Shown here: positions 2,678-60,908 of the stretch, one piece after another | Layout: the number at the start of each line of letters is the position of its first letter | Numbering within the stretch: the first letter of the stretch is position 1 | From: Paraspadella gotoi | Taxonomy: Eukaryota > Animalia > Chaetognatha | Length of the DNA: 64,000 bases | Assembly: GCA_051294375.1 (NCBI GenBank) | Contig: CM119265.1 | Coordinates: 14,334,414 to 14,398,413, forward strand | Direction of reading: 5' to 3' | The notes under the pieces: model-generated | The model's input: only the letters and a program-made list of their open reading frames with translations | The model's database searches: none | What the model was told of the DNA's origin: nothing | Translations under genes and position numbers: made by a program

Positions 2678-2911
2678 TGAAGAGACAGTAATTATTGATA
2701 AGTGTTAATGACAGAACCGTTCAATATAAGCAGTCCCTGAGCTTCGGATCAGGCTGTAACACCATGTTACAGGCGGGTTAAGCGCCCCGTCCCTCTTAAC
2801 TGCCAGACGACCACCGGGCTAGAACCCCGGACCTTTGGGTTGGGAGGCGAATGACTTGCCTCCGGCACCAATGGCCACTGATGAACGGTTGGTGGATTTT
2901 AGTCCACCATA
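2678..2911 (-). mobile_element. tRNA-bearing ~234-bp element (family T1), copy 1, TSD GTAC
   Basis: Near-identical to six other copies. GTAC at 2674-2677 and 2912-2915. tRNA-like domain with A/B-box-like motifs on the minus strand. Confidence 0.88.
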
Positions 2912-3547: not shown

Positions 3548-3761
3548 ATTGGAGGATTAAAATCCACCAACCGTTCATCATCGGCCTTTGGTGATGGAGG
3601 CAACTTATTCGCTTCCCAACCCCAAGGTCCGGGGTCGCCTAGCAGTTAAGAGGGACGGGGCGCTTAACCCGCCTGTAACACGGTGCCTGATCTGAAGCTT
3701 AGGGACTGCTTATATTGAACGGTTCTGCCACTAACACATAACAATAATTATTGTCTCTTCA
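3548..3761 (+). mobile_element. T1 element copy 2 (degenerate, no TSD)
   Basis: Same sequence in the opposite orientation with small deletions; flanks ACAG/GGTA do not match. Confidence 0.8.
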
Positions 3762-9774: not shown

Positions 9775-12700
9775 ATGGCAAAACCTAGGTCTTTGCTTGG
9801 AAACGGCGTCAATCTTCCTTCTAGCAGCAAAAATCGCTTTCATCAGGCGGCTCGAGATGGTTACCTCGATTTACTCAAAGGTACGTAGAAAGACGTGTAT
9901 TTTTCGAATATATACTATGTAAATACAGATAAAGAATTTTAGGTGCTGCAAATTCGTACATATGTAATGGTATTCGTGTACGAAAATTATAAAGTTCTTG
10001 GCTTCCTATGTAATTACCAAACTCGCTGTTTAACCAAATGCAGGCGCAACGAGACGCGACTGCGATCGACCGGACGAAGACGGAATGACGCCTTCGCATT
10101 GGGCTTCGTATCATGGAAACGTGGAAGCCCTTCGACTTCTAGTCTCGCGCGGGGGAAACCCTGATAAGCTTGACCTTCTCGGAAACTCGTGCCTTCATCA
10201 CGCTGTCGTTCACGGCCACCTCAAGTGCGTCTCGTTTCTCGTCACTTTCGGCGCTACCATATGGGCGATGGACAACGGTTTTCGGTGAATTTGAAGAATT
10301 GAATGATTTCGGTAAATGCAAAATTGTATGTAATAGATCTCATTTTTCATAAGAACTCCCCTCGACTTGGCCGCGCTACACAATCATATGGACATTGTCA
10401 AATATTTAGACTCAGTTGCTGCGCAACAGGCTTCGAAAGATCCCAAGAGCGTTTCCAAAGCCAAGCAGAAAGCACATGAGCGCGCGGTCAACAACGGCAA
10501 GCGTTTCGAGAAGTTGCGAGATGAGACATCGAAGAAACTTGAAAAGGAGCATCTAAAACTTTCAAACGCGCAAATTCCTAGTCCTGATAAATATGGGACC
10601 GTATCTTCACTAAATCTCTTCTCGGACTCAAAAATAGCCAAATCACTTCGAAGTGCCAAGAAACCTTCCACATTTTCGACCGGCTCGAAAAATGCACCAA
10701 AAAAATTTTCTGATATTTCTGGCATACAGGCCACTGTACGACGCGACAAAGGGAACCCTCAATCTTCCAGCGAATCGTGGTTTTTGGGGCAGGGTTCGGC
10801 GCCAGAAAGTGAGTTAAGTCAAAGCGCCTCGGCGTCCGCCACGCCCACCTCGCCCCCGCGACGCGGGCTCGTCAGAGATTTTCAAGTCCTGTACGTCGAC
10901 AAATCGGCGCGGCAACAAGTGAGTTTTTTAATATACTCTTTGAAATGGAAGTAATACATACGTAGTTTTGTTTTTTCAAGGCGGCAATATCTATGGATCC
11001 CGAGGCGATGGAAGACGCATTGAATCGGGCGACGAGCGAGAACGATCTCGTATTGAGTGGAGACAGCGGAATCGTGGAGGAGGACGAGGAGGATATTGAG
11101 CCTCCCATCAGTATATTCGACCGCAAGGGTTTCGGCGAGTTAGCTTTCTTTCGCCACCGACCCCCGCATCTTCAAGAGAGCGTCGTCAAGGACGCTCTGT
11201 TCTCGTTGCCTGCGTCCGTTTCGACTGAGAGGGACGACGATGAAGCATCTGGAATAAAAAATTACGGATTTATTACGAATGACCAACCGGTAGGTGGAGA
11301 GCGTTTTTCAGAACCGAATTTATTTTTATTAATGACGTAAATATATAAAAACCACTGTAGTGTTTGAAGAAAGACCTTTCTAAGTTTTCCTGTTATCTTT
11401 TTAGAGCCATACGTATTAGGCCGGAACAGGTTGAAAACTAGAAGTTCTCTCAAATAAATAATAGTAATGAAGAGACAGTAATTATTGTTATGTGTTAGTG
11501 ACAGAACCTGAAGCAGTCCCTGAGCTTCGGATCAGGCTGTAGCGGGTTAAGCGCCCCGTCCCTCTTAACTCCCAGACGACCACCGGGCTAGAACCCCGGA
11601 CCTTTGGGTTGGGAGGCGAATGACTTGCTCAACGGTTGGTGGATTTTAGTCCACCATAGTAAAGTGTTAGAGAATATGAAATTGAAAATAATTTTAAAAG
11701 ATTATTTTATTAATAAGCGCACGGAAGCATTTAAAGATTATTTTAATACTATATAAAGTTAAAATTTTTAAAATTTTTTAAAAATTTTAATAGATTCTGA
11801 TAGAGCTTTAAAAGTTAGATAAAGGTTATTAATACAACTTTTTAAATTTTTTTTGTTTTATTGGTAAAAATTTTAAAAAAACTATAAAATTCAGCCAATG
11901 ATGATGATGATGATGATTTTTATCGTCGCAAACGCAAAGGGGCTGCGTCTGCTGATCAGTTTATTTGACAATGAAAAAGTTGGGTTTTTTTGGGTTTTTT
12001 TTTTTTTTTTTTTTTTTTTTCAGAAACTAACTTTAATTTTCCTCGGTACTTTATTTTTTTTTATTTCTAGATTTTTTAAATTTTTAAATTTTGTTTTTAT
12101 TTTGTTTTATTTTTTCGAGATCACTATACTTTTAAGATTTTTTTTTTTCTAAAAATAAAACAGAGCAAACAAATAATTGCGTGCATGGTTGCAAAAAACT
12201 TTTATATGTTAACAAGAAAGAACCAAAAATAATAAATTTAGAAAAATGAATGGTTCAGGGGACAAAGTCAAGCATGTGGCGGCTACTCAATCACGGGACT
12301 TGAAGCAAACAGGTCCCCATTCTCGCGCAGACAGATAGTCTCTCAAAGAAGTACTTTAATGTTTTGCCGAAGTCGAGACCTGCATTCATTGCTTGGAGTT
12401 TGGCAAAATCTTTAAGGTTGAAGAGCTCGTCCAGGTCCCAAGCCCCAAAGGTGGAAAAAACCAAAGGGATGAAACCAACATCGGCCGGAAGTTTGCCTTC
12501 ATAATTGCCATGTTTGGCCTGACGTGGGATTAAGGATTGTGGGTTTAGTTGAGAATAAGGCATAAGCAGGGAAAAAAAAAAGAGTAGCATCAAGATAAAG
12601 GATAGAAGAAAGAATGAGCGAACCACGCGTCTAGCGCTTTGTTTCTTTGTATTAAATCTTATATTCGAAAGCTTAACTGCTAATGCAAATTTTATTCTTT

Positions 12701-15188: not shown

Positions 15189-19388
<4,200 letters not shown>

Positions 19389-25853: not shown

Positions 25854-27589
25854 ATGTTGGCTCTTGCGATTTCCCTCGTAGATGTTATCTACTCCTTTTA
25901 TCTAAAGTTCCGCCGTTCCTCAAACGTCGACGATGAGGAAATGACGATCTTCGACTTGCCTCGGGATAGATATAATGGTGTAACTCTAGACACTGCCAGA
26001 GACGCGCTGTCCTTGGATGAAAACGCTTTTCGAAATAAATTGAAAAAATCCATCGATATTTGGGAAGGCACCGGGGTCAGTATCGTGTTGCTATGAACAA
26101 TTTTAGCTGTGGTTGATAGTAAATAAAATCTGTGAAATTAAATTTAGGTAGGCGCAGTGACAATATTCATTCGCCTAACGCATGCGTCTCTGGTCCCCGT
26201 TTGCGCCTCCCTTGGATTTGAGTTTCACCACGCGAAGGCCGACTACGTCTTCATGCTTCGATGGCTGCCGCGTCGTCAGCCATGCAAGTTCCCTCGTTAC
26301 GGGAGCACTTACATTGGCGTTGGAGGGTTAGTTGTTAACGATAATGAGGAGATATTGGTCGTTCAGGAACGTTATTTTCGTCGGCCTCATTGGAAGGTTA
26401 GATAGTTAATAATGACTATTGTATAATGGAGTTATCAAATTTGAAATATTTTATGTCAGCTTCCCGGTGGCCTTGCGGAACCAGGCGAAGACCTTCAGGC
26501 GACGGCCGTTCGGGAGGTGCGGGAAGAGACCGGAATCGCGACGCGTTTTGTTTGCGTTTTATGTTTTCGCCACGCCCATTTTTATCAATTTGGTTGCGCC
26601 GATTTGTACTTCGTTTGCCTTTTGCGCCCATTACTCGAAGGTCTTAGTGACGCAGACATTCGACGTCAAGATTCGGAAATCGAACAGGTAATGTTCGGTT
26701 ATGGCAACGGGAGGATAGCCTGTGATACCCGGGGCGCAGGGTATCTCACCAACTGGCGTAGGGGCTGCGGACCCTCAGTGACCGCCTCCTGTCACTGGCA
26801 TGTTTATACCGGCACCGTCACATTTAAGCCAGAACCGAGATACCCGGGGATTGAACCCGGGACGCACGGATGGAATGAGATGATTTAGCCTGCTCAGCCA
26901 TTGAGACGAGGCTGAGGACGGACAGCAGTGAGGCAGCTTTAAGTCTTGCTGCCACACGGTACGATTTTTGTGGGGAAAACTTCTGGGATTGATAAATTGA
27001 TAAATTCGCCTCCCGTATAGCTTGGTGATACTCGGCTCGTTCCATTGGCTTGGACAGCTAAGTACTCATTCACCAACCGTGAGTTCCGGGTACAATCCCT
27101 ACACGGTCACGCTGGTTAAGTGTGATGGTGTCAGCATAAACACGCCAGTGACATGGGTTGGTCACTGTAGGTCCAAAGCCCTAAGCGCCAGCTGTCCTTA
27201 GATGCCTCACGCCCCGGGCATCACCATTGCCATACTATCATACTTGCCAACCTTCATTTCAGTGTCAATGGATGCCCATTGAAGAATACGCTACATCGCC
27301 GCTTGTCTCTGAACAAAATCGTTTCGTTGTCCAGCTCTATCTCAGATTACGCGGAACCCGTTCCATCGATGCTACGCCTTTCGGCGAGCATCGAATGAAT
27401 GGAATCGGATTGCCGAATTCTCTTCCGAGAGATGCGAACCAAGCCGGAGTCGACCACTTCAACGGCGAAAACTACCTCAGCAACATAGGAAATTCTTTAG
27501 ATTTTGTCATCGTACAAAACTTAGTTCCGAGTCACGACGGCCGCGCGATGAACGCTTGCTACAGCGTTGATCGCATTCCTCTGGATTAA
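25854..27589 (+). CDS. NUDT6: Nudix hydrolase, NUDT6-like (start at 25854 or 25941)
   Basis: DRYNGV; GFEFHHA; PRYGSTYIGVGGLV; WK|LPGGLAEPGEDLQATAVREVREETGI (Nudix box); FRHAHFYQFGCADLYFVC. 4 exons. Confidence 0.9.
26716..27236. mobile_element. Head-to-head pair of diverged tRNA-derived elements (family T2) in a NUDT6 intron
   Basis: Minus copy ~26915-26716 has A-box TGGCTGAGCAGG and B-box GGGTTCAATCCC. Plus copy ~27017-27236 shares gccagtgac...gtcactg and ccccgggyatcac. A related fragment lies at ~39240-39300. Confidence 0.65.
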
Positions 27590-34579: not shown

Positions 34580-36372
34580 ATGGCTTCGTCCTCGCATTCC
34601 GTTAAAGGATCCGCGGAAACAGTAGACGACGTCTCTGACTCGTCCCCTGCTCAAAACGTGGCCGCTCTGATCATTGGCCTCTTCTTTGTAGGCTTCGGAC
34701 TTCCGGTTTGGTGGAGGACAACGGAGGTTTATCGAGCCTCCCTTTCTCACACGGAGATCGAAGCGTTAATGACGACGCCGCTAGTGACACTCGCAGAGTT
34801 GGAAGTTGTGGTCTTAGCGCCGGAAGAAAATGTTCCCGGATCCAACTTAGCTTTGTTCGGTCAGCGATTAAAGGAAGAAATGGAAATATCCACGGAAGGA
34901 AGTCAAATGTTAAAGATCGATTACCGCGGACAGGTAACCTCTTAATTGTAGTTTAGACAAATTGCTAACCAATCGTACCTAGTGTAAAATTCGCATTATT
35001 TTCTGTTTAGGTGCGTCGTGCCTCCGAGGCGGAATTCGGAGCAGCCGCCCACGCCTCTAATCTCGAGACATTGGATCGCAACCTGCGCGACGTTCGAGGT
35101 CCGGAAAAACCTGGGCGATCTCTCGTTTATCTTTGCTCTTCGACCTCTTTTGCTCTTCCAACCCCTTACGTGGGTGTACACCGGGCCGCTTTTTTGCCCA
35201 TTAATCGAGATACGGATTTGAGCGACATGGTTTCCCCAGTTAACGACATAGTTCGCGCTCTCTTTGTTAACGAACCCGCCGTTTTCCACGCTTTTCACAA
35301 CGCTCAAGGTTCCATGCGCCTCGAACCGGACAAAGAGAGCATGCGCGCGCTAAAGTCTGCAACCGAGTACCAATTGACATTTACCCTATTGGTCCCTAAT
35401 CCGAACGAGATGGTGCCAGTGCGATGGAATATCGCCGACGCAGTGGACGCACACCTGCAACCGCTCATTGACCGACTTAATCCCTTCGCTTCATTGCACG
35501 TCGATTCCCAGGTTTTGTACTACGTATCATTACCAATGCGTCCCCATTTCGATGCGAATAATTCTCGTTACTATCTCACTCCCGACGATTTACCGCACAT
35601 TGTCAACCCAGTTGAGGCAAAGTTAGTGTCACACGTGAACACGCGTCAAATAATCCATTTCTTGGTGTACGTTCCTCCACCGGAACATTCGCCTCTATTC
35701 ATTTACGACGAAGGCGGTAAACCCGCCGAGTCCAACGCATTCATCAGCGCCAGATGGGGAGGTATGATAGTCGTTAATTCGGAGAGGGGCCCTACTTCGC
35801 TGCGTTCTCCTTCACCGATCCTTCTGGACACCCACTTTATAATGGAGATTTTTCTTTCGCAACTCCGCTCGCTGCTCCACTTCGATACCGCCTCCCGCGA
35901 AGTCTCCACGATCCCCAGTCTCGTCGTCGCCGAACCGCGAGACGCCGCCCTTACCGAGTGGGAACTGGACGCCTGGCTCCGTCGTCGGGGTCTCGAAAAC
36001 GTCGCTACTTCGTCCGCCACGCTCAAGTCTCTTTCGGATCTGCTGGAAAAGATCCACAACATCGTCATTAACGATGAGATAGGGGCCGACGTGGAGGCGG
36101 CCCTTCTAGCTTGTAAAACAGCGGGTTCGTTGATGAAATCCGGACGATTGACGGACGCCTATGTGTCTTCTAAAAAGGCCCTTGATTCCTCGGAGAAGGC
36201 CTTTTTCGATCCGTCTCTACTGGAGCTTCTATACTTTCCCGACGACCAAAAGTTTGCTATTTACATGCCGCTGTTTCTACCGATAGGATTGCCGATTGCC
36301 ACTTCCTTATACGGCGCTCTGAAGTGGTTAAAAGGAAAGAAGTATACGGCAGATGAAAAAAAGCAACAATGA
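34580..36372 (+). CDS. PIGS: GPI transamidase component PIG-S, 2 exons
   Basis: GLPVWWRTTEVYRASL; YQLTFTLLVPNP; DSQVLYY; SNAFISARWGGM; SEKAFFDPSLLELLYFPDDQKFAIYMPLFLPIGLP. Confidence 0.96.
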
Positions 36373-38484: not shown

Positions 38485-41400
38485 ATGTCAGACAAAACTT
38501 CGCATTTGATCCAGGAGTTTATCTCCAACCTTCGAGGACGCAATGATGAGGTTAGACTCGATAATTAGTAAATTTTGAAGAAATTTTCGTGAGAGATTTG
38601 TCGATTTAGGTGCGAGTCAAAACGGCTCTGGAATTTTCCAAGTATGTCAACGATCAGATACGCGAAGCCACGGAACCGGAAGTGGCTTCTTTTATGAACG
38701 AATTTAGTCAGGTACCGACTTTGTTGGTATTTGTCAAGTTGCGCAAACTAATTTCACGTGTTTTTACTTTGAATAGTCAATGATGGAAATGATCGTGAGT
38801 GACGACATGAATTGGAAAAAGGGCGGCCTGCTCAGTATCATCATTTTGATGGCTGCGGACTGTCGCGATCAGGAGAGCGTCTCCCCAAGGGCCGCCCGCT
38901 ACTCGAATCTCCTTCGAAGACTCCAGGCGGGACCGGATCCTATTCTTCAGGAAGTCGCAGCTCGCGCTATTGGAATGTGCGCTATCGCCAACCAGGTTAT
39001 TTGTTTTACCGATTGTTCATACGTTTTTTTTCTTTTAAATTTTTAAATTTCACTATGACAGACGCTGAAACAAGAGTACGTTGATTGCGAAATAAGGCGT
39101 GCCATAGAATGGGTGGGTGTGGAAGATCAACGGGGGACAAAAGGAGATAGGCAGGCAAGTTTAATTCAGGATTTCCTTTAAAACCGATTTTATATCTGGA
39201 GTATAGCAACAGCTGGGTTGCCTTTGAAGCTCAGCTGGGTGGGGCATATCACCTGTAGGTGTTAGGGGCTCAGTGACGCCACCTGTCACTGGCGCGGTTA
39301 CCCATGGTCGTTAGGACTGTGGGTGGAACGCATGATTGGGATGATGCGTTGCCCCTCTGAGCTATTGGCATTGACTGAATGAAGTCGGAGGTAAGGCGGT
39401 ATGTATTAAGGCGGGCCAGATTTTACATTTTTTACAATATGAAAAAGTCTGAAATTAAAGTCTTTTGTCCTTTTACAACCAAATTGATTTATGATGTTAG
39501 ATTTTAATTAAATTAATTTTCCTCATGCTTGGAAGCATTTTAATATTTAACAATATATAAGAAATGCTTATAAAATATTTTAAAATTTTTAAAAATGGAT
39601 TCTGATAAATATTAAAAAGTTAAATAAAGGTTAATACTACAAATTTTAAAAATTTTAATGATAAATGGCTAAAATTTAAAAAAACTTAAAAAATCATCAT
39701 TATCATCATCATCATTCATTAAATTTTATAGTTTTTGTTAATTTTCATAGACAAATCATTAAAATTTCAAGAAGTTGTAATAATAACCTTCATCTAACTT
39801 TTTAAACTCTATCAAAATCCGTCCAAAAAAATTAAAAATTATTAAAATATTTTTTTGAATTTATATTATTTGGATAATATAAAATAGCTTCCATGTGTTT
39901 AACTATAAGATAAATCTTAATTTTTTTTTAATTTTTACGATTTTTAATAAACACATTAATAATATTTATACCGGACTTCTGTTAGTTTGTAACCTGTTCC
40001 GCCTTAGTATGTATATATACGGCCACATGAGATTTTTTTTTAGGTCTTGAAACGGGTGGTAATTTTTTTTTTTTTTTTTTTTTTGTGCAGTTCGGATGCA
40101 TCATTCTTCGCGAACTGGCAATGATTGTGCCAACTTTTTATTATCAATGGATGAAAACCTTTTTCGACGCCATATTTTTGTCGGCCGTCAGAGACCCAAA
40201 ACCCACGGTCCGAGAACAAGCAGTTTACGCGATAAGGTATTCAACTTTTAAGTGTAAGAAAAAACAAAGCAAACAAACATGTGGGAATGGTTGTATAATA
40301 TTAAGATGATATGAACAAAAAACGAACCGATAGTCTCTCCAAGAAGTGGTTTGTCTTTTTGCCGAGGTCGAGACTTGCATTTGTTACTTGGAGTTTGGAT
40401 AAATCTTTAAGGTTTGAAAGCGTATCCAGATCACATGCCCCAAAGGTGGTGACTACCAAAGGGATGAAACCTACATCGGCTGGTATTTTTCCCTCATACC
40501 ATGGCCAGTTTAGACTGCAGAGCTCGTTCCAAGGGCATAGGAGAGGGATTGATGGATGGTGTGACCAAAACCAAAAGTGAAAAAAATCTAAGGAAAGGCT
40601 CTAAAAATGTATTTCTTTAGAGCTTCTCTTGTGGTCGCCGCCCAAAGAGAAACAAGAGGAGGTCCGAAAGAAGCGCATCACAATGCTCCCATTTGGTTCC
40701 GAAAGTGTTACGACGAGGCGGTGCTGCTTCTCGACGACCACGTCCCGCCACCCGGTTTCAAGGTTTTTGTCCCCTTTGCGTAATAATTTTTAGCTGAAAA
40801 TAATCAGTATCCGTAGCTGTCACTATCAAACGGATAATTGATAATTGATCATCAGGAGGCAATGGGGAAAGACGCGAAACCGACGCCGCGCGACGATCGC
40901 ATTCATGGATATCTTCTGATAATCAACGAGCTTTTTCGACTGGCCAACGTGCGAACGGAAAAGATGAGAATAGAGTTGGAGGAGCAACTTTATCCTCGGG
41001 ACAACGCGGAGCAAAAACCTTTCAAGGGTGGGCGAGTTGTGTTACACACTCTACTCTATTTATAGGAACCCTTATAAAATTCGAAAAACCTACAGATGTG
41101 AGCAAATCCCGTATTCCGTCGTCTTTTTCCGTCCTGTCCTCTGCCTCGACAGAGACTCACAAGACGCCCTCTACCTCGTCGTCCTCTACTTTGAGTGCGG
41201 GTGGTTTTGGCGCCGGCGCCTCATTTTCTACGTCATCCTTTCTGACGACCAGTCAGAGCTTAAGTAGTGGCCTGTTTGGGGCCGCCGCGACTGCCTTAGC
41301 GCTCTCTTCCCCTTCCACTTCCGCCGCGGCCGGCGGCAGTCCCGCAATTCACGGTGCCTCTCCGGGAAGCCTCTCGCTTTTGCAGGTTTTTTAACAAGTG

Positions 41401-44400
41401 CCGCGGAATGTTTCGGTCCCTTTTTGTAAATTTTTTTTTTGGGATTAAACGCTTAGGTGCTTCCTTTTATCGGCTGCCCGTTGCTGACTCCAGCAACTAT
41501 AGAGAGTCGAACATGTCGCTTTCTTCTGGAAGAAAACTTTAGCGACATATGTCAAACCGTGCTTCGACTACGCAACAGCAAGAGCGCGCACGTCCACCTC
41601 ATGTTGATGGAAGTTCTTCCTCGTCTTGCAAGCTTTAAGACCGACACATACGTCAAGGTAAACTTTTTTAAAATTCGTGGTTTTGTGGCATTCTCGATCT
41701 GACCCTCGTCCCGTTTACTTGCCACAGTTTTATTATTGTTTTAACGAGTTTGGATAATCTCGAAGGAGAATATGAAGCTTGAAGAATAGCAATAAAAAAT
41801 TGAGCTCTCGAATCTGATTTAAGAAACTATTTTTAAAATAAATGAATGATGCGATAATCCTTTCTTTTTCGTTGTTTATTGATATTAGAGAAAGCAAAGA
41901 ATTTTGAATTTTTAACAACGATTTTTAATTAATAGTTGGACATGTTTCGGCTTGTTTGCTTCAAGCCTTCATCATATGAATGATGCGATAATCCTTTCTT
42001 TTTCGTTGTTTATTGAAAAATTCAAAATTCTTTGCTTTCTCTAAAATGAATGAATGAATCTTTACTAACTTAGCTCACCGACAAAAGAAAAAACTGTGAA
42101 TTTAAAGGAATAATGTTTTTGTGGTATTTTTAGAAAAAATTCTTATAAAACATCAACAATATTTGTGGTAGTTTCCTCTCGGTTTCACTTCCTCTTCTAC
42201 GCGGAAACGCCGAGCTTTGCATTCTTCGATGACCGCGACGCTGTAGTCCTTTCTCTGATCTCTATTCATCACCTGACCAACGGAGCAAAGCTCATGTTTG
42301 CCAATTAAAAAGTTGAGGAAATATTTTTTTCGATCTAACCTTTTCGTCCTGTTTGTCTTCATGGGCTTCGGTAACGACGAATTGATCCTCCGTCAGATTG
42401 GCATCCGCTTCTTCGCGAGCCCTAGCGGCTGCGTTTTGCCACCTTTTTTATCGATCGAATAAATAGTTGTTGAAACTATGCCAATAACGACAAAAAAACG
42501 CTTTTGCAATACGTGATTCTTGGATTGGGGTAGATGGCGTTCTCAGAATATTCTTGAAAAGAGTGATTAATCGTGTGTTGCACGCCCTCCTCAGAACCGA
42601 GTCGCTCCGAAGCTAATTTCCACTTAAGCTCTGGCTCTTGAGATTTTAGAGCCAGCAAGTCGTCCAACTGAGAGTCGACCTGTTTTTGTTCAAGAAGTTA
42701 AAGAAACCGTTGGCGATATGCTTAAGAGTAAATATAGAAAAGTTAGGACTTTTTTATACAGAAAAAAACAGGTCATGACCGTAGACTTAACTGGACATAA
42801 AATATAAAGAGAAAGAAAGAAAAAGAAATAAAGAAAGAGAGGAAGGAAGGAGAGAGAGAGAGAAAGTGTGAGTGTGTGTTCACGGCCAGAATCCTCGGCC
42901 AAAACGGTGGATCTGCAAAGTGGCTTCGCCACAAAGTATAATTTATTTTTGAAATTGGAACGGCCTATAGAAAAATTATCCATTTTTTTAATAACTAATC
43001 TATCTTGCCCCTGACTTTAGGCGGGCTATGGTGACTTAAGGCCTTATAAAATTTATTTCATTATTGAATGAAAGAACGTGCCTTTTGCATTAGTAGTATA
43101 GTAGGGTGTATTTCTCCTGTCGAGTCCTGAGGTGACGAAGTGTCGACCTTTATCAAATCCTTGATGCTTTTTCTCATCTGTTCGAGCGACCCTGAAGTGG
43201 CGACTTTCGGAGGACTTAAAAATTTTTTGTTGTTTTAATATGTTTTTTACAATGAATATTAGTTTTTCATTATCACTGTTTTTCATAATTAATTTTTTAT
43301 TACTTATACAATCATGTTTTTATTTATAAAACCATATTAAGTAAAAATAATTAAAATTTTTTCAATAGAATTTTGTCAAAACAAATAAACGAAATAATTT
43401 TTTAATAATTATTAATTTTGTGATGTTTAAATTATTATTTTAGCTTTTATTAATATACTGAGTTTAAATAAAATGACACAGATGAAGAGACAGAAGTAAT
43501 TGTTATGAGTTAGTGTCGGAACCGTTCAATATATGCAGTCCCTGAGTGTTTAATCAGGATGTAACATCGTGTTACAGGCGGGTTAAGCGCCTCGTCCGTC
43601 TTAACGGCAAGGCGGCCACCGGGTAAGAACCCCGGACCTTTGTGTTGGGAGGCGAATGACTTGCTTTCAGCACTAATTGCCGCTGATAAACGGTGGATTT
43701 TAGTCCACCATTCAGATTTTGTGATGATTGTCCCCAAAAATTATAGATCACCTTTTTTAATATTATTTGTATATGTATGAAGCTAAAAATTTAGATATAT
43801 ATTCTCATCATCAAGGTCCATGAAAACTGATGAAGTGATATACCAAATGTTTTGTTTACATTTTATAAACAAAATAATGTTTTTGTAATATTAAAATTAT
43901 AGTATAGTATAGGAAAAATTCTTTTTCTCAGTTGCTGCCTCTTCTGATTGGTCCAAAAACGAGTTGAGGTTGGCAGCGTCTGAGCTGAAAGTAAAATGTC
44001 TGTCTCTCTTTCTCTCTGTTTTTTTTTTTTTTTTTAAATTATCATTAACATCGAACGCGTGATTTTAAATATCGCGGTCGTGCATGTTATCATTTTATCA
44101 TCTTTTTCCTTTTTTTCTCTTTTTTTCTCGCACATTTATTTATTCAATTTCTTCAATTAAATTAAATCAATTAAATTCGTTCAGTTTAATTAATTCAATT
44201 ATTTTTAAATTTATTCACTCAATGCATTTATTTATTATTTAACTCTTTCATTAATTTAAAATAGATAAATTTAAATTTCATGTATTCATTCATTTTATTT
44301 ATTTATATTCATATATTTATTTATTTATTTTTTATATATGTCTAATGCCAAGTTTGTTATGATTTTTTGAGTATCAATGTTTGTCATGGGTCTCAAATTT

Positions 44401-47400
44401 TTTTATGCGATTGTGACGATCCTTATACTTTAAGATTTTTTAGATTTAAATAAACATAAAATTATATACATATATAAAATATTAAAACTAAACTAATATG
44501 GTGGACTAAAATCCACCAACCGTTCATCAGCGGCCATTGGTGCCGGAGGCAAGTCATTTGCCTCCCAACCCAAAGGTCCGGGTTTCTAGCCCGATGGTCG
44601 CCTAGCAGTTAAGAGGGATGGGGCGCTTAACCCGCCTGTAACACGGTGTTACAGCCTGATCCGAAGCTCAGGGACTGCTTATATTGAACGGTTCTGTCTG
44701 TTCTGTCTGTCCCAATTTCATAACAATAATTACTGTCTCTTCACTAAGATTTAATTAAAATTTATGAAATTGGTACAACCAATATAAAAATTATCCATTC
44801 ATTTAATAAATAAGCTATCTTGCCCCTGACTTTGGACAGGCTTTGGTGGTTTAAGGCCTCCATCACTCTTACAAGATAATGACATAGCAGGTCCCTGCAA
44901 GCTTTCAATCAAGACTCTCTCACAGTCCCGTTTATTCACTCCCAGAGTACCTGGCTTCCCTATCAATGAAGTGGAAAATATTTCAAAGAATGTTTCAATT
45001 GTATGAATTGTATATTATAATATATATATATCTATTATAATACCCTCTTGAATCCATCTCTGCCTTGTTTCTCTTTTTTCCCTGTATCGGCTTCACGTCT
45101 TTGGTTTGTAAATCCCAGCTTATGCTTCTCAATGTAATATGAACCTTAAGGGTTAGTGAACATTTGACATAACTGTTAGACACAAACTCTTGTTGGACTT
45201 TTTCACTCTTGATTTCTTTTTGTAAAAGCGTTTAAAAATATAAGCAATATTTGTTTACAAACCTTTCCATTTATATTATTATGTTCTAATCATGATTATT
45301 ATAGTGATGAGCGGGGTTTTCCGTCTCTTGCTCACCTTCTTAGAACATCAATATTGCTGGCGCCAATCAAATTGAATCGCATGCATAAGGTAAGCAAATG
45401 CAAGCATTGGGAAACAATCGGAATAGGCAATGATCTCTCGATGATGGCTAATTAATATTAATACAATCTGTGTGAAAATAAATCTTGGTTATAACATAAT
45501 AATGAAATAATAACTAACTGCAATGTTTCTAAACAAATATTGTTTATATTTTAAAACGCTTTTACAAAAAGAAGTTAAGAGCGACAAAGTCCAACAAGAG
45601 AGTTTGTGCCTAAATTATTAATATAATTCAATTTTAAAGACAATTCTTTTACATCGTTAATAAGGTTGGCCGCGTTATATTTGTCGTGCTCTTGATCGGT
45701 TTCAGTAAGACGCCACTTTTCAATTTCTCGATGCTTCTCCTGACCCTCGTCATCGTAGGCGATGATGTCATTAGAATACCCGGACACGAGAGCGTCGCGC
45801 ATTTCGCGTAGTTGGTCACGTTTACGAACCAGGAGCATATGCTTGTTCTGCAATTTTCCTGTAATGAGAAATTTTTGTTCGAGACAAAAGATGTTTTAAT
45901 TCATTTTAAATTTAGGTATTTCTACCTTTGGTACTTTGTAAAAAAAGTGTGATGTCCTTCTGTTCTTTTAGCCCATAAATTATTTCTTCTACAGACAAGG
46001 CTAAAAAGAATTAGTTATTCAATTTATAGATGGTTTAGATCATTTTCAACTTTTATTGAAGTACTAAAGCTATAAATATATATTTTTAAAATTAAACGAG
46101 GTCACAATTTTGTAAAAGTATATTTGAAATTTAAAAAATAGAGCCATAATAACTACCTCCTGTCATCGATTGGAGAGTTTTCAATGCTTGGTGCATGCTC
46201 TTTTCTAATTCGTCCTTTTTGTCTTCATATTTCATTCTTATTATTCTGTTAAAATATATTAGAAATATCGAAATTAATTATATAGTTCACTAATTAAAAC
46301 ATAATACTTTTTCCGTACTTGTAGGCCAATTTTCTGAGCTTTGGTCCACTTATTGCCTCTGGTCCGTGAGCTTTGTCTTTTATGGTTTTTTTACCTTTTC
46401 CCATCATCGTCGTGAGAGCTTTTCGAGCTCTTTCTTGTTCTTCCCGATCCAGTCCTACAAGACTCAGTTACCTTAATCATTTTACCTCGTTTTTATCTCG
46501 CCTGTCTTGTGCGAGATTTAGGTTTACTTGAGTTTCTTAGTATCGTCGTCGTTGTCATTATTATCACGCTTCTTTACAATTGGATATCGTAAAAGTGTGT
46601 AAATGTAGGAAGCTAAAAAATTAAATACGGTTTCTGATCATTAAGATCTTTTAAAATGATATAAATAAATTTTATTTGGATACAAGTATTTTTTGTTTAA
46701 ATTCCCTTCACATTATTAATAACGGTAATATACAATTTAAAATATAGTATAATATATAGTTCAATTCAATTAATTCAATTTATATTTGAAAAATTATTTA
46801 TTCAATGCTTTCATTTATTTAAATTAAACAATTTAAATTTAATTCATTCATTGATTTCATTTCATTTTTTTTATTCATTCATTCATTCATTCATCAATAA
46901 TTCTTTTTTATCGCATCAATAATTCTTTTTCATAGCATCAATAATTCGTTATCATCGCATCAATAATTCATTATCATCGCATCAATATTTTTTTATAATC
47001 TTATCAATCAATCTTTCGTTATCATCCCATCAATCAATCTTTCGTTATCATCCCATCAATCAATCTTTCGTTATCATCCTATCAATCAATCGTTCGTTAT
47101 TATCCCATCAATCAATCTTTCGTTATCATTGCATCAATAAATATTTCGTTATCATTTCATCAATCAGTCGTTATCATCGCATCAATCATTCGTTTTTCGT
47201 TTTATAAATATTGAGCGATGGATCATTGTGCTTATAAGATTTTTTCATTAATTTTCTTTGTCTGGCGAGATCTCTAAACTTTTAAGATTTTTATTTTATA
47301 TTTTTTTCTCATACCTTCTATTCTGTCGAGGAGATCTTGTGGCATTTTTTCTTTGTGAATTTTCCCTTGAATATTCAATTTCTGTTTCTCAAACTCTCTA

Positions 47401-53400: not shown

Positions 53401-56400
53401 GAGCGAGAAGGAAAGTTTGTGAAGAAGCTAGATATAAAGTTTTGACGGAATTGTGCCAGTGGAAATGAGTTTAAATGGAAAAAATATTAGTCACATTTAT
53501 TTTATTTTAAGGACATCGATGATGATAAGCTGTATATAAATTTATAATTAATTATTAAATATTAAAATTAATTAATTAATTAATCGATTAATTAATTAAT
53601 TAATTTTCGTAGGCAGATCCGACATTGTTTGCTCAAACTTGTTTTTTTTTCCATCGAAGCTTCTTTTTCTTCTTCCATCATTTGGTTATCATCCCATCAA
53701 TAATTTGGTTATCATCTCATCAATCATTTGGTTATCATCGCATCAATCATTTGATTATCATCGCATCAATCCTTTGGTTATCGTCGCATCAATCTTTTGG
53801 TTATCATCGCATCAATCCTTTGGTTACCATCGCATCAATCCTTTGGTAATCATCGCTTCAATCCTTTGGTTATCATCGCATCAATAATCAATTACTATTA
53901 CATCAATCAATCAATTACTATTACATCAATCAATTATTATTACATCAATAATTTGTTATCGCCATCAATCATACTTTTTTTTTTATTAACTTTTTTTGGC
54001 GAAATCACTATACTTTAAGATTCTTTTTCCCCTTAATACAATGTACATATGTAACTTTTAGATCTTAACTTTGTTAGGACGAAATATTCGAAATCCGCGA
54101 ACTCGCTATTTGCACCATCGGTCGACTTTCGGCTATGAACCCCGCGTACGTGATGCCGTCCCTCAGGAGGACACTGATTCAAATCCTAACCGAACTAGAA
54201 CATTCCGGAGCAGCAAGGTTTGATTTCGTATTTCTTTCTGATATCCGACGAATTATAATCGATTTTATTCGAAAGTTACAAAAGTTGATTCAGTAAAAAT
54301 ATAATTTACAAAAATACTGTCTGAGCAAACAAAAACAGAGATTAAACAGAAAAGGTTGTATAATCTGATTGGTACTAACAGATACAAAGAGCAATCTGCT
54401 CGGATGCTGTGCCACTTGATCACCAACGCTCCTCGCCTTATACGCCCTTACACGGAACCGGTGCTTAGGGTCTTGGTGCCCAAATTAAAGGAGGCTCCAG
54501 AGGCAAGCCATCCGGTTGTTACCCTCGTAGTGCTGACCGCCGTAGGAGAACTCGCTTTCGTGGCGGGAACCGAGATGAGCAAGTGGATGAAAGAACTTTT
54601 GCCACTTATCCTTGATATGTTGTCCGAATCTTCCGGTGAGTGACTCACGGTTTTAAACGACTCTTGTGCTTCCTGATTTTCTAAGATTTTCTTCCTTATA
54701 GCTCCGCAAAAGCGAGAACTAGCTTTGTGGACATTGGGACAACTCGTTGAAAGTGCCGGATATGTGGTGGAACCTTACATCAAATACCCTAACCTTTTGG
54801 AAATACTTCTCAACTTTTTACGAACTGAACAGTCGCCGAGAATGCGAAGGCTGACCCTTCAGGTTATTGGATATTTAGGCGCTCTCGATCCTTATAGGCA
54901 CAAAATGCTGATGGGAGCGATTGAGGTAAGACAAAGGCTATTATTAGATCCATATCGTCACTCTAAAACCTATCTTTCTTCCTCAGAATTGCGACTCGGG
55001 CCCCATTATATCGATGGCGGACATTTCTAAAGGAACTTCGGGAGCCGCCCTTGACACATCGGCCACCGCGGCTGACAATTTGTCTTCGGCGGAGATGCTC
55101 GTTAGCAACAGCGGCTCCATGGAAGATTTTTTTCCGGCGGTGACCATCGCGGTCCTCATGCGAGTAATCCGTGATCCTGCGTTGCAACAGCATCACAACG
55201 CTGTCATACAGGCCATCGTTTTTATATTCAAATCGTTGGGTGTCAAGTGCGTTCCTCACGTTCAGCAGGTTCGTGTTTTAAAAGGAAAAAGGTTTTGAAA
55301 GTTTTGTGAATCAAACGAACATGTTTAGGTTATCCCCGCTGTTCTCGGCATCATCAGAACGGCGGAAAATCGGGAATTCTTATTTCAACAATTAGGTCAA
55401 CTCTCGGCGATCATTAAGCGGCATATTAAAGTAAAGAGAAACTTCTTTTCCTTCTTTCCCTTCTTGTAATTAAAAAAAAAACAAAATAATAAAATAATTT
55501 TTTTTTAATTTCCCAGCCTTATCTTGACGACATCTTCGCTCTCGTCAGGGAGTTTTGGTCGACAGCATCAACGATGCAAAGCACCATCTTAACGTTGATC
55601 GAACAAGTCGCCGTTGCTTTGGGCGGTGATTTTAAGATGTATCTGCCACAATTGATTCCTCACATCCTCAAGGTACTCGCGGTTTAGTTAACTTTTTACT
55701 TTAATTCAAACAATTAAAAAAGAAGAAGAAAAAAACAAACCAAAAACAGGTCTTAGCATTTGACAAATCGAGCGGCCGTAGAGTGACTCGTCAACTTCTG
55801 GAGACCCTCAAAAAGTTTGGGGCGAACCTGGAGGATTACCTCCACATTCTACTCCCTCCAATGGCGAAGCTTTTCGACGCCCCCGACGTTCCAATTCCTG
55901 TCAGGATTGCGGCCTTTGAAACCGTCGATGTTCTCACTGGTAAAAGTAATTAACTTATGGAATAATTTGCGACGATTATGTGACGATAATCCCCATAAAT
56001 AGCGTCGTCGTCGTTTATTTTATCCTAAGTTTGTAATGTATAAATAATATTAAATATTAGGTTTCTTGTATCAAATTTGATTTTTTGAGTATCAAAATTT
56101 GTCATGTGTCCAGATTTTTTCTATGCGATTTCGACAATCGTTATGCTTTTAAGATTTTTTTTTAATTTCAAGTTATCTTTTTTTAGATTATATCGACCTC
56201 ACAGAATTCGCCTCCAAAATTTTGCATCCGTTGGTTAGGGCCTTGGACAAGCATCCCGAGGTCTCAACCTGACACTGACTCTTTTAATAACTATCTCTTT
56301 TAAAAATTAAATCGCGTTTTCAGGTAGTACCAGCAGCCATGGATTGCCTTTGTGCCGTCGTCCACCAATTGGGCAAAAAGTACCAAATATTCATCCCGAT

Positions 56401-59400
56401 GGTCAATCGCGTTGTCCTCAAGCACAAGATTCAGCATCAGAGTTACGAGATTCTTGTTCGTCGAATCTATAAAGAACCCTTCATCCCTGAGGAAGAAGAA
56501 GAGCGGGGTGGCGGTGGAAGCGGCAGCGCGAATGGATCTGGTGGTAGCAACAGCAACGGCACTCGCGGATCCAGCGGCAGTTCTGCCCCTTCCGTCTCAT
56601 CGGACGAGACGTTGACTGCGCCAATCAAAAAGCTACCGGTGGCAGCCGCCGCTTTGGCGCGAACCTGGAAGGAGAACAAGCGCATCTCCAAGGACGACTG
56701 GCTAGAGTGGATGCGGCGTCTCACGATAGAAGTTCTACGATCTTCTCCTTCGCCCGCCTTGCGCGCAACTTGGGCGCTTGCTCAGAACCACCTCCCGTTG
56801 GCCAGGGATCTTTTTAACGCCGCTTTCGTTTCTTGTTGGACCGAGTTGAGCGAAGTGCACCAGGACGAACTCATTCAGAGTCTAGAAGAAGCGTTGACCA
56901 TAGCGGACTTGCCGGAAATCACGCAGGTGAGGGAATACTAACGATATTTGGTTTTTTAACGCATTAAATTTAAAACTAATTATTCTTTTTCAACAGAATT
57001 TGCTTAATCTGGCCGAATTTATGGAACATTGCGACAAAGGGCCTCTTCCTTTGGAAGCCCAAACACTGGGCGAATGCGCCATGCGCGTGCGGGCTCACGC
57101 CAAAGCGCTTCACTACAAAGAAGAGGAATTTCACAAAGCAGGGCCACCCTCGCAGGTTAGAAGAAAGAAAAGAAAAAAATTAATTTTGAATATTATAAAT
57201 TTATATTTGTGATAAATTTAACGACGGATTCCGAATATCATCGCATCAATGAATGACTATCATCGCATCAATGAATGACTTACATCGCATCAATGAATGA
57301 CTATCATCGCATCAATGAATGACTATCATCGCATCAATGAATGATTATCGTCGCATCCATCATTTGGTTATCATCGCATCCATCATTTGGTTATCATCGC
57401 ATCATTATTTGGTTATCATCGTATCAATAATCAATTACTATTGCATCAATCAATCAATTACTATTACATCAATTAATCAATTATATCAATAATTCATTAT
57501 CGCATCAATCATTCATTTTTTTTCGGATTTTTTCATTAATTTTCTTTGATAGTAACGTCTTGCGAGATCACTATATTTTTAAGATTTTTTTTCATATCTC
57601 TTTCCCTCCATAGAAATAAAAGCCTCATTCGATAAGTTAACAAACGTGAAAAATCAAAATTGTTTTTATAAGGTTATTTATTGAGATTTCCCCTTTATTT
57701 AAATCATGTACGTATTTGAACTGTGTTTAAATTGCGTTTAACAGGAAACTATGGCCGCCCTCATATCCATTAATAATAAACTGCAGCAACCGGAGGCCGC
57801 TCGTGGTGTGCTGGACTACGCGATTAAGAATCATCGGTGGGATGAAAAAGCTTGATGAAACAACAAACAAGTTGAACCATTCCCCTTTTTTTTAGAGCCG
57901 ACATCCGTGTGCAGGAAAGTTGGTATGAAAAACTTCAAGATTGGAGCGAAGCTTTGCGAGCCTACGAGAAAAAGCAAGAGACCAACAAGGAAGACATGGA
58001 ATTGACTTTAGGAAGAATGAGATGTCTTGAATCCTTAGGAGAATGGGGGCAGTTGTATGAGGTAATTGCTGAACAATGCGTAAACATTTATAAACATTCA
58101 TAGATATATAGAGTCGACAAAATTGTAATGATTTAGAATCTGGCGGTTTCGTCTGAAAATGCGTCAATTTCATTTCAGCTCACTTAATACTGTAAGATTT
58201 TTTCTTAAATGATACAAATGAATTTAGCTCCGCTTGTAAATTATTTTACGTAAGAAAAACATTAATAATTTTGCAGAATAACTGGTGGTTCATTTCAAAT
58301 GAGATTGACTTCAATCTCATTTACATATTTTAGCAGTTAAAATCATTTCGCATATATTTTGATACGGTTTTTATAAGAATTTTTTTACGATTAGCCTGTA
58401 GTCGGGCCACTTTACTAGATATATCACCAAAAAAATTTAAAAAAAAAAATATTTACAGAGGAGGATTTAGCTTGCCGTCCCATTTTTCTCTTTCTTCCTC
58501 CTCCTCCTGCCCCTCAGTATATTTTGTCTAGCGATTCATTCTCTAGTTTCTACTTTTCGCCAAATATATATCTCTATTTTTTCACGCCTTCAATAGCCCT
58601 CAAGATTTACTGCGAAAAATTTGATTATTTTCAAGTGTTCCGAATTACCCTGCACTCTCTTAAAATCGCATTCAAAATAATATTAAAAGTAACCTAAGAT
58701 GGAGTGTAATTTTTTAATTCCAGTTATTAACTTCGTCAACAGTTAAAAAAATTGTGAACCTCAGCTAATTCTTTAGTACTTTAGATAATTAAAAAAAAAC
58801 ACTTTCTCGTCTTCTACAAAATGCATAGTACCTAAAAGCATAGGAAATGCGGAATATAATGGGCAAATGTCAACAAGCTCAATTAATTTTTTTCAGCAAG
58901 TTTAGACCTGCTAGTAAAAAATGCTAATCGACTTTTTAAATATTTTTACGTTTTTAAATTGTTTGTTTAAATCCCTATTGAAATCAAAGCTGTAGATGCT
59001 AAACTGAACTTAAACAGATTCTTTAAAAAAAATTATTTATACTAGTATGTATTAATATTTTCTTACTTTGTAAAAATTTTTAATCCTTTCACTGAAGAAG
59101 ACTCGAATTTTGAATCTAAATATGTCCATTTATAAAATAAATTTTGCTGTTGCCGAATACAATAATAAAAATGTTGTTACTCTAAAAACGCAACGTCGCA
59201 CAAGTAAAAATAATTAAAAAACCTCAAATCAATTCTTTCATACGGTCCTATATAGTCCTGTGCAAAAACATTATGAAAATAAATCAAATTAAATTCTTTT
59301 AAAATAAAAAATATTATAAGTAAATAATATTTATGGAAAAAAGAACTTAGTATAAATTTGGTTAATCTATAGCTATCCGTTACTCAGCAATGATTTTTTA

Positions 59401-60908
59401 AAAGTAACTACTCAGTTACAAACACTGAGTATTCAAACAGAATGCCAGAGCAAAAGGAAAGTATTTTTAACCTCTTGTGTTTAATATGCTGTAGCTCTGG
59501 AATGATTAGACCGATTTTTTTTAAAGTTACATATGATTTCTTCTTCAAAAGTTTTTATTTCCCATTCACAATTTAAAAAAAAAATATAAATACAGTGCCG
59601 ATAAATTAAGGCTTAAAAGTATATTAAGTTTTTGGCAGATCTTTAAAAATAGCTTTTTGAAGGGAATCAAATAACAAATGTTTTTTAACCATTTATTTTT
59701 CGGTAGCTATAGCACTTGAATGCTTTTACCGATTTTCTTTTAACTTACACATAGATTTCCCATTTCAAAATCAATATTTATCATTTATAAATTTTTATAA
59801 TATGAGCGTAAAACGAGTGCAACTTAATATTTGGAGTGACTTTTTTTTTGCATAGAACAGTATAAGATAATTTTTTTCTGGTTTTGAAAAAATCTTACAG
59901 TATAGCTAATAAGGCGGGCCAAAATTGATCACTTTTTTACTAGTGAAGCACAATATAAAATTGAAGCATTTAAATATTTATCAATGCATAGTCAATAAAA
60001 AAAATTTTAAATGTATTTTTTCAGAACGGATTCAGATAGCCCATAAAAAGTTGTTTACATAAAGTATAATTTGTTTTACAATATTTTGATGATAAGCGAG
60101 TTAAGGAAAAAATCCTTAAAAATCATTATACTGAAAAGACAGTAATTATTGATATATGTTAATGATAGAACGGTTCAATATAAGCAGTCCCTGAGCTTCG
60201 GATCAGGCTGTAACACCATGTTACAGGCGGGTTAAGCGCCCCGTCCCTCTTAACTGCTAGGCGACCACCGGGCTAGAACCCCGGACCTTTGGGTTGGGAG
60301 GCGAATGACTTGCCTCCGGCACCAATGGCCGCTGATGAACAGTAGGTGGATTTTAGTCCACCATAATACCTTAATTTTTATAATTTTTGCTAATATTAAC
60401 CAATAAAATTTAAAAATCTTGTTAAATATTTTTTATTTTTTTCATGCTCTACTAGAATCCGTTTTTAAAAATTCTGAATTGGAAAAAAATTTGTTCATCA
60501 TTTATAGTAATACGATAAACCTTAAATGCTTCTATGTTATTTATATTACAGAACTTGTTCCTTGTTCCGCCTTACTAGCTAATTTATCAATCGACGCTTG
60601 ATTGGGCATTCTAAGATGCAATTGATTATTTCAAAAGGCTGAAATTAAAACTAATCCCCTGAAAATATTTTTTTTCTTAAAATTTTTTCTAAAAAATTAG
60701 TCCGTTAAGTAATTCCAACAATACGTAGTTCCAATATTATTTTACATTTTGTAACAAAGTAGTCATTTTTGTGAAACAGATTGCCAACGAAGCCTGGGAC
60801 AAAGTTGGAAACGTTCATCGCATTCAAATGGCAAAGATGTCAAGCTCTGCCGCCTGGGGTCTACAGCAATGGGACAAAATGGGAAAATTTGTTAACTATC
60901 TTCCTGAG
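38485..60908 (+). CDS. MTOR: mTOR kinase, N-HEAT/M-HEAT to start of FAT domain (continues beyond window)
   Basis: LRELA..PTFYY; RDDRIHG; [24 protein letters not shown]; [11 protein letters not shown]; [11 protein letters not shown]; [18 protein letters not shown]; [12 protein letters not shown]; [13 protein letters not shown]; [17 protein letters not shown]; [11 protein letters not shown]; WYEKL; AAWGLQQWD. More than 20 exons. Confidence 0.97.
39407..40006. mobile_element. MITE with TAAGGCGG terminal inverted repeats and 4-bp TSD (GTAT)
   Basis: gtat|TAAGGCGG...CCGCCTTA|gtat. A second copy at 59910-60574 has CTAA/CTAG flanks. Confidence 0.75.
40327..40500 (-). mobile_element. Second CRE-like LINE 3' fragment
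   Basis: Translates [58 protein letters not shown], homologous to 12291-12530. Confidence 0.7.
41939..41975 (-). ncRNA. Minimal hammerhead motif remnant (C3 lost)
   Basis: aTGATGA-aggcttg-aagcaaa-caagcc-GAAA-catGTC with a palindromic ACATGT stem III, inside a local direct plus inverted duplication (41840-42043). Confidence 0.6.
42153..49808 (-). CDS. ODAD3/CCDC151-like (or CCDC183-like) coiled-coil protein nested antisense in the 41658-50075 mTOR intron
   Basis: More than a dozen exons. Segments [73 protein letters not shown] and [24 protein letters not shown] are collinear with recalled CCDC151 (e.g. FLASLEGRLPEYNTRI, EVVTRASLKIRSQKLIES). Some middle exon junctions are unresolved. Confidence 0.72.
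43483..43712 (-). mobile_element. T1 element copy 5 (older), TSD CAGA
   Basis: CAGA at 43479-43482 and 43713-43716. Confidence 0.85.
44497..44743 (+). mobile_element. T1 element copy 6, TSD CTAA
   Basis: CTAA at 44493-44496 and 44744-44747. Confidence 0.88.
46905..47190 (+). repeat. Minisatellite with core TTATCATCGCATCAAT (22-26-bp units)
   Basis: Tandem units such as cgttatcatcccatcaatcaatcttt. Same family at 53680-53970 and 57236-57510, and inverted at ~8140-8340. Confidence 0.85.
53680..53970 (+). repeat. Minisatellite, 23-bp unit TGGTTATCATCGCATCAATCMTT
   Basis: About 9 tandem units followed by a degenerate tail. Confidence 0.88.
57236..57510 (+). repeat. Minisatellite, 22-23-bp units ATCATCGCATCAATGAATGACT
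   Basis: About 5 units of one variant, then about 4 of the TGGTT variant. Confidence 0.88.
60132..60365 (-). mobile_element. T1 element copy 7, TSD ATAC, nested in the 59910-60574 MITE
   Basis: ATAC at 60128-60131 and 60366-60369. Confidence 0.88.

Follow-up and report, generated by a model that had tools for sequence, protein, structure and literature searches.

A 64,000-nucleotide stretch of the genome of the chaetognath Paraspadella gotoi (GenBank assembly GCA_051294375.1, contig CM119265.1, positions 14,334,414 to 14,398,413), called here the window and numbered from its first letter, carries seven copies of a short dispersed repeat, family 1, which together take up 2.5% of its length. 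In the family 1 unit, a predicted internal RNA polymerase III (Pol III) promoter, contained in a tRNA-like segment, is combined with a fold of the twister ribozyme type, and the copies are likely solo long terminal repeats (LTRs) of a small non-coding retrotransposon, a miniature terminal-repeat retrotransposon (TRIM) of the Helenus type. The original prediction for this locus dealt with the tRNA-like part and the mode of insertion; the most distinctive part of the unit, its twister, is overlooked there.

The focal copy (44497..44743, + strand) is 247 nt long, comprising the 234-nt full-length unit, as defined by aligning the copies with their flanks, and, close to the 3' end, a duplication found in this copy alone; it reads TA...CA and is bordered on either side (44493..44496 and 44744..44747, + strand) by CTAA, its 4-bp target-site duplication (TSD). 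A BLAST search with this copy as query retrieved all seven copies originally proposed, 84-97% identical over aligned bases. The others lie at 2678..2911 (- strand; TSD GTAC; twister intact), 3548..3761 (+; diverged, with two deletions and no TSD), 11468..11658 (-; TTAC; three deletions, helix P3 gone), 17326..17545 (+; AGTG; a deletion in the tRNA-like part), 43483..43712 (-; TCTG; the oldest, at ~85%) and 60132..60365 (-; GTAT; in an AT-rich host repeat), internal deletions being present in 3/7 copies. Exact 4-bp TSDs accompany six of the seven (GTAC, TTAC, AGTG, TCTG, CTAA and GTAT in element orientation), in agreement with the earlier list, which was read on the + strand; flanking tetramers would match by chance with a probability of 0.012 in a single copy and of about 2e-11 in six out of seven. 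The duplications show a bias in target, with TA at the centre in 4/6. The ends, which had been described as fixed, are slightly less so: the 3' end is exactly GTCTCTTCA in 6/7 copies, and at the 5' side TATGGTGG is exact in four copies, while the remaining three, variant in their first base, read AATGG, CATAG and ATTGG. As proposed, no tail follows any of the seven copies.

A hairpin with a 7-bp stem (TGGTGGA/TCCACCA; 44499..44518, + strand, in the focal copy) lies close to the 5' end, as seen in the sequence and in the fold of copy 60132, and an AT-rich segment (44679..44743, + strand) terminates in CA at the 3' end without the run of four T residues (T4) that stops Pol III. This run is absent from the sense strand of 6/7 copies, the seventh having a single T4, 6 nt from its 3' end. 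Several candidate features were discarded. The terminal TGGTGGA, considered as a primer-binding site (PBS) for what we took to be tRNA-Ala, is merely 7 nt long and locked in the hairpin. The inverted pairs 2678/3548 and 43483/44497 do not behave as composite elements with terminal inverted repeats (TIRs), their outer flanks being unmatched in both cases and each copy of the second pair having a TSD of its own; finally, a likeness to 5S noticed by eye in the middle of the unit was abandoned after the twister pairings had accounted for it.

The tRNA-like segment (44530..44601, + strand) begins 33 nt inside the unit and is closed by the stem GCGGCCA/TGGTCGC; an A-box-like motif is found at 44538-44549 and a B-box-like motif at about 44582-44592 (both +), the latter with one extra mismatch in the focal copy. 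Each of the two boxes deviates at one position in family 1, a fit equalled by 27/2000 shuffles, and the head of the unit aligns to that of a related unit, 3a (see below), the A and B boxes of which are perfect, with a score of 37, compared with 21.3 +/- 4.0 and a maximum of 40 in 300 shuffles. The lowest-energy fold of this part consists of a long closing stem and two hairpins, with no cloverleaf. That the unit contains A and B boxes derived from a tRNA thus has moderate support.

Directly behind this segment, a twister fold can be drawn at 44605..44678 of the focal copy (+ strand; unit positions 109-182). Its parts follow one another as P5, UAA, P2', GA, T2' (CGG), the P1 hexamer, UAA, P2 (CCC), T1 (GC), a P3 hairpin, P4 with the loop UCCGAAGC, and P5', an order of helices that is the same as in the Rfam consensus RF02684 (twister type P5), i.e. 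a circularly permuted twister, and the parts match the published table of Schistosoma mansoni twisters (PMC8501958). Of the two pseudoknots, T2 joins the loop CCG with CGG and T1 joins GC with GC; both are intact in 6/7 copies and broken in the oldest one (43483). Cleavage is predicted, on this model, between U132 and A133 of the unit (44628/44629 of the window). Rfam scans of these units returned no hammerhead, the ribozyme fold being that of a twister.

The same fold recurs in three related units of the window. A family 2 copy at 44760..44879 (- strand), in which no tRNA part was found, holds a P5 twister core (44826-44866) with P1 AGGCCT, ends in ...TTTCA and matches RF02684 over 44825-44867 (25.8 bits, E 0.32, gathering threshold 37.6); two more fragments of this family, at 42945..43044 and 18262..18346 (both -), are 5'-incomplete. 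A covariance model built from the family 1 copies matched 27105-27199 (E 0.31) and led to units 3a and 3b. Unit 3a (26700..26956, - strand, 257 nt) has the 4-bp TSD CGGT on + and the ends TGTGGCAGC...GTTGCCATA, inverted at 7/9 positions and LTR-like in their TG...TA form, and its P5 twister core (26761-26821, -) has the self-complementary P1 segment TGCCGGTA. Its relative 3b (27040..27234, + strand) has a tRNA-like head, the 3' end TTGCCATA and a P5 twister core (27122-27182, +) to which the Rfam twister-P1 model gives 19.3 bits (gathering threshold 67.2, E 0.22). P2 has 4 bp and P1 2 bp in both units, and the ends CA-3' and CCATA-3' occur one of each on family 1 and on 3a. Units 3a and 3b stand head to head within one intron of the gene for a NUDIX hydrolase, ~12 bases apart if 3b begins near 26969.

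The twister hallmarks (UAA loop, GA, L4 motif, T1 and T2) are present in 6/7 family 1 copies and in three related units. A first search descriptor, requiring a 4-bp T2, missed 3a and 3b and gave two chance matches; once revised, the descriptor had nine matches in the window, all within these families and all with an L4 beginning with UCC or UCU, as compared with 1.6 matches per locally shuffled window, or 0.04 when that start of the loop is demanded. With one copy taken from each of the four families (1, 2, 3a and 3b), 44/44 cells of P2 (first 2 bp), T1, T2 and P4 are Watson-Crick pairs in spite of two-sided changes in P2 (C-G/A-U), T1 (G-C/A-U), T2 (G-C/A-U) and throughout P4; swapping strands between families (23 swaps) left at best 40/44 cells paired, 38 when only Watson-Crick pairs are counted. 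Furthermore, P5 keeps five or six of its six pairs in the four families despite unrelated sequences. Such matched changes in both pseudoknots would be hard to explain without a twister fold, and we are highly confident that the fold in these units is real.

A peculiarity of these twisters is the reduction of P1, which in the focal copy is the self-complementary hexamer GGCGCT (44622..44627, + strand), in which a single G-U pair closes a palindromic tetraloop. One pair and a palindromic tetraloop likewise make up P1 in family 2. The segments of the four families, GGCGCU, AGGCCU, UGCCGGUA and UGUCAGCA (6- to 8-mers), are wholly self-complementary in 3/4 cases and at 6 of 8 positions in the fourth; none of them folds as a hairpin, and the first three form self-duplexes at -8 to -11 kcal/mol. 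The axolotl hammerhead HHR_Amex1, also built with one pair and a palindromic tetraloop, is reported to cleave efficiently only as a dimer (PMC7229834). By analogy, two twisters might complete each other's P1, a suggestion that we make tentatively and would stop short of calling probable. It would predict a dimer-dependent twister, of possible use in RNA circularisation tools. The cleavage region (44622-44637) also has a 12-mer, GCTTAACCCGCC, in common with both nemertean Ajax LTRs, where a hairpin comes next; no twister L4 was seen in the Ajax LTRs by eye, and the 12-mer is either a remnant or due to chance.

The family was also followed beyond the window in assembled contigs of four sequencing runs placed on copy 60132 (X1, 12,518 contigs; X5, 1,890; X9, 890; X10, 2), contig depth not being equal to copy number. 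Depth drops steeply at both ends of the unit and, among the matches listed, loose contig ends of X1, X5 and X9 pile up at its terminal bases, the flanks beyond being unrelated (agreement ~0.4), those of X1 amounting to 77 contigs at the 5' base and 36 at the 3' base, with long, AT-rich flanks; therefore, the ends hold family-wide. Seven copies per 64 kb suggest many thousands in the genome. The loose ends listed show no dominant common flank, a view that is weak for a minority class such as two-LTR copies. Two joints of family 1 units, both at single-copy depth, were present among those listed for X1: a head-to-tail junction with the 4-nt spacer CTAG, and a second end-to-start joint. These could stem from dimeric masters and equally from a unit having been inserted into the TSD of its neighbour. 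In addition, three common variants of the tRNA-like closing stem, hand-mapped in the run contigs, preserve pairing through G-U/G-C exchange. X10, from organism B, yielded a single 51-nt piece at the 5' end (depth 2), insufficient to claim a second host. A 19-nt terminal pattern found six matches in metagenome contigs, none longer than 22 nt and all attributable to chance, and a degenerate twister-core pattern found none in viral contigs or prokaryote genomes.

As to how the units were inserted, we consider the action of an integrase very probable because of the constant 4-bp TSD, the missing tail, the sharp ends and the occurrence of a unit, 3a, with both LTR-like ends and a 4-bp TSD; this bears out the earlier claim that they do not insert as short interspersed elements (SINEs), from whose target-primed reverse transcription (TPRT) family 1 departs in its 33-nt leader, tailless end and duplication of invariable length. 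The ends of the unit lie ~130 and ~100 nt away from the predicted cut site, the tRNA-like part begins 33 nt in from the 5' end, and a SINE-type reaction does not explain ends so distant from the cut and upstream of the promoter. Helenus elements (Kojima 2024, PMC10886601; 'TRIMp3') are TRIMs whose LTR holds a tRNA-like stretch with A and B boxes and whose internal region has a PBS and a polypurine tract (PPT); those of animals make TSDs of 4 bp and are presumed to depend on a Gypsy helper. LTRs outnumber internal regions 10-20:1 in some of these families (PMC10886601), so that a single window containing solo copies alone is no surprise.

Several observations weigh against this interpretation. 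None of the seven copies has a partner LTR, PBS or PPT beside it or forms part of a full-length element, the search for paired copies around a PBS/PPT region, advised in the original prediction, having yielded 0/7; nor was any reverse transcriptase, integrase, transposase or other retroelement Pfam domain detected in the 130 open reading frame translations scanned (14 + 116 of the 183 of at least 72 aa). Family 1 begins with TA and ends with CA, versus the TG...CA with short inverted ends of most Helenus LTRs in the available part of PMC10886601, and its seven copies have no TIR, as had been noted before. The family 2 copies of the window lack 5' ends and TSDs. With regard to the ribozyme, family 1 has no Rfam twister match even at E<=10, probably owing to the extra P3 and the minimal P1, and all Rfam twister scores of these units fall below the gathering thresholds (RF02684, RF03160). 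In families 1 and 2, P2 has shrunk to 3 bp from which an A bulges, P1 is down to 1-2 bp, and a twister without P1 is reported to cleave inefficiently (PMC8501958); moreover, it is an alternative fold that has the lowest energy in the focal copy. The descriptor was composed after the element had been read, and, the four families being of common ancestry, the strand-swap control does not amount to a probability. The tRNA-like domain stands by its boxes and its head alignment, whereas ARAGORN calls no tRNA gene and the Rfam tRNA models have no match at gathering or at E<=10.

Taking both sides together, we favour, with modest confidence, a Gypsy-dependent, Pol III-driven master element with two LTRs and a circular RNA intermediate made by twister cleavage. 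The rare full-length master, LTR-PBS-internal-PPT-LTR, would be transcribed from the A and B boxes of its 5' LTR, with read-through of the unit, 6/7 copies having no T4 stop inside. The twister of each LTR is predicted to cut at unit position 132/133, the two ribozymes possibly paired via their self-complementary P1 segments; that the twister of the master actively cleaves is, on this model, probable. The cut-to-cut RNA, which would contain one full unit plus anything between the units, might then be ligated into a circle as retrozyme RNAs are, and the balance tips slightly towards such a circular intermediate. Since a transcript from the internal promoter would lack the first 33 nt, the circle would restore them. 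The reverse transcriptase and integrase of a Gypsy partner would copy the element and insert it with the 4-bp duplication that is observed, and recombination, or short complementary DNAs (cDNAs) made off the circle, would leave mostly solo units, the state of 6/7 family 1 copies and of 3a. The cycle model of the retrozymes also permits solo-LTR cDNAs straight from the circle (PMC4918200, PMC7761336, PMC9695139).

Some of these data could be read as meaning that nothing beyond the 234-nt unit belongs to the element, which would spread from head-to-tail dimeric masters through an RNA circle of ~238 nt and be inserted by integrase without any PBS/PPT region. No partner LTR, PBS or PPT would then be expected, the CTAG junction and the second end-to-start joint of X1 would be traces of such dimers, the palindromic P1 suits tandem copies, and the schistosome Pol III and hammerhead repeats do spread from tandems (PMC6765202). 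However, priming sites to define integrase-ready ends would be missing, unless the hairpin-bound TGGTGGA serves as a PBS; the 4-nt spacer is equally given by insertion into a neighbour's TSD, a few such events being expected in a very abundant family; and solo fractions above 90% are known in Helenus families (PMC10886601). We regard this reading as unlikely, and slightly more so its extension, in which the unit would be the entire element of a new animal retroelement class with a dimer-gated twister, a unit-length circle, a Gypsy integrase and no two-LTR parent. An ordinary Helenus-type TRIM copied from linear RNA, the twister being a 3'-end former in place of the T-run or an inactive passenger from a SINE or a long interspersed element (LINE), would suit Kojima's proposal that Helenus originated by SINE insertion into an LTR (PMC10886601), as well as the twisters known at RTE 5' ends and the weakened P1 and P2 of family 1. 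Nonetheless, the compensatory changes in both pseudoknots over four families speak for a fold under selection, and an active ribozyme in the 5' LTR cuts there too; cuts in both LTRs would leave an RNA without terminal redundancy, for which a circle is needed. We find it quite improbable that the linear route suffices.

It is less credible still that the units are SINE-like Pol III and ribozyme elements, comparable to the schistosome Sm-alpha, inserted by TPRT with an endonuclease that leaves 4-bp duplications. The schistosome layout is indeed a tRNA-like promoter with a ribozyme, the first base varies in 3/7 copies, the family 2 copies are 5'-incomplete and a LINE-like fragment was recognised in the window by eye; all this is outweighed, in our opinion, by the constant 4 bp of the TSD, the absent tail, the position of the ends relative to the cut and to the tRNA-like part, the inverted LTR-like ends of 3a and the longer TSDs of animal non-LTR retrozymes (PMC7229834). 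A non-autonomous DNA transposon that carries the RNA cassette passively has our least credence, and a very small one: it would be consistent with the 4-bp TSD, the terminal hairpin and a neighbourhood rich in miniature inverted-repeat transposable elements (MITEs), yet family 1 has no TIR and the RNA fold is kept by compensatory change in families with differing ends. The conserved fold indicates an RNA stage, which leaves the transposase-mobilised Pol III cassette, the second of the two options of the original prediction, unsupported.

The rest of the window is gene-bearing and rich in other repeats. Its genes (35011-36372 and neighbours), with short introns, encode ankyrin, MCM, NADH dehydrogenase subunit G, NUDIX, ferritin-like, PIG-S and DHHC domains and, as judged by eye, a TOR-like protein; the best named relatives of the PIG-S protein are 38-46% identical and environmental proteins 58-67%, which places the host in an animal lineage from which little has been sequenced. 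One repeat family, AT-rich and MITE-like, with inverted arms that are long, has members at 5063-5500, 7638-8034, 11679-11921, 20337-20532, 39538-39934 and 60000-60449, the last member being the one into which the family 1 copy at 60132 is inserted. Two copies of one fragment (12294-12779, - strand, and 40326-40517), 79% identical and with no Pfam match, have a translation that we take to resemble the C-terminal end of a LINE with a restriction-like endonuclease. Three related minisatellite arrays of 22-26-nt repeats with common flanks (46842-47308, 53643-53983 and 57236-57604) are probably parts of one dispersed element. Besides these, there are a repeat in which degenerate runs resembling GGGTTA occur together with inverted segments (4411-4508, 8878-8948 and 9192-9258) and a near-perfect 67-bp inverted repeat at 17121-17257, which plant microRNA models score far below threshold, as a hairpin only.

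Returning to the two-LTR master with a twister-made circle, its components can be set beside systems already described. In the sources available to us, the LTR elements with a ribozyme are hammerhead retrozymes of plants, the retrozymes of animals are hammerhead tandems without LTRs, and a twister has a single demonstrated role in a mobile element, the processing of a LINE 5' end. Neither a twister in an LTR-type or tRNA-headed non-autonomous element nor a dimeric twister appeared in the accessible parts of the literature covered, which lies mostly outside subscription journals and includes PMC6765202 and bioRxiv 2022.07.19.500677. The twister itself resembles RF02684 and those of the S. mansoni Perere-3 (PMC8501958) in the UAA cleavage loop, GC at T1, the L4 UCCNAAGY, the GA with the T2 partner, the P5 order of helices and the tolerance of a weak P1. 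In contrast, the Perere-3 twister marks the boundary of an autonomous LINE at its 5' end, whereas here the fold is internal, and the RF02684 consensus has no P3 hairpin, which is present in our units together with a palindromic P1 of minimal size and a P2 that, in families 1 and 2, is bulged and 3 bp long. The schistosome repeats share the order of Pol III promoter and self-cleaving ribozyme in a short repeat; theirs is a hammerhead in tandem arrays, and LTR-like ends or a constant 4-bp TSD are not described in the available text of PMC6765202. The metazoan non-LTR retrozymes and the axolotl HHR_Amex1 (PMC7229834) resemble family 1 in their 170-400 nt units and one-pair helix with a palindromic tetraloop, and differ in having tandem hammerheads, no LTRs and longer TSDs, family 1 occurring instead as dispersed solo units that carry a twister and have TSDs of 4 bp.

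The closest relatives in layout are the Helenus elements, with which family 1 shares a short non-coding unit, a tRNA-like A/B-box segment inside the ends, the 4-bp TSD and many solo copies; its 234 nt are within the 104-323 nt range of animal LTRs, and a TA start occurs in some Helenus families. The solo LTR of a tRNA-based analogue of Cassandra, as originally envisaged, thus belongs to a kind that exists and has already been described; the solo status of our units is something that we infer. Most Helenus LTRs examined by eye (PMC10886601) read TG...CA, with several starting TA, and have short inverted repeats and a T-run just past the tRNA part, whereas family 1 has a twister and no T-run behind that part, and no terminal inverted repeat. 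The published sequences were compared with family 1 by eye and by short-motif search: none of five motifs from its ends and tRNA part occurs in the Helenus consensus file (PMC10886601), and a sixth one tried matches the Ajax LTRs. Assignment to Helenus is provisional. In its available text, PMC10886601 neither mentions twisters nor reports a ribozyme in Helenus LTRs. In the supplement of that paper, the wasp Helenus-2_SyJa-LTR and Helenus-2_SyUm-LTR contain, by eye, a complete type III hammerhead core 3' of the tRNA part, with three stems and loop-loop pairing, on which the accessible text is silent. An internal region exists for both wasp elements, and for SyJa a PBS is listed; these elements may be unrecognised animal LTR retrozymes, hinting at a wider oversight of ribozymes in such LTRs.

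Lastly, the LTR retrozymes of plants (Cervera et al. 2016, PMC4918200) combine, as our units do, a ribozyme in an LTR-sized unit with a 4-bp TSD and solo LTRs, and a Gypsy helper and a circular RNA template are presumed for them as they are proposed here. They differ in their type III hammerhead, as against an animal host, a twister, a tRNA-type internal promoter and a PBS and PPT that would belong to the presumed master. Having no hammerhead, our units are not members of the retrozyme class as defined, though they would be retrozyme-like in their working on the reading that we favour. If that reading is true, it explains how, with no terminator, a Pol III-driven LTR element regains the sequence that lies upstream of its promoter, P5-type twisters gain a job in an animal genome, and a twister-bearing LTR unit with a tRNA promoter joins the Helenus and the retrozyme lines.

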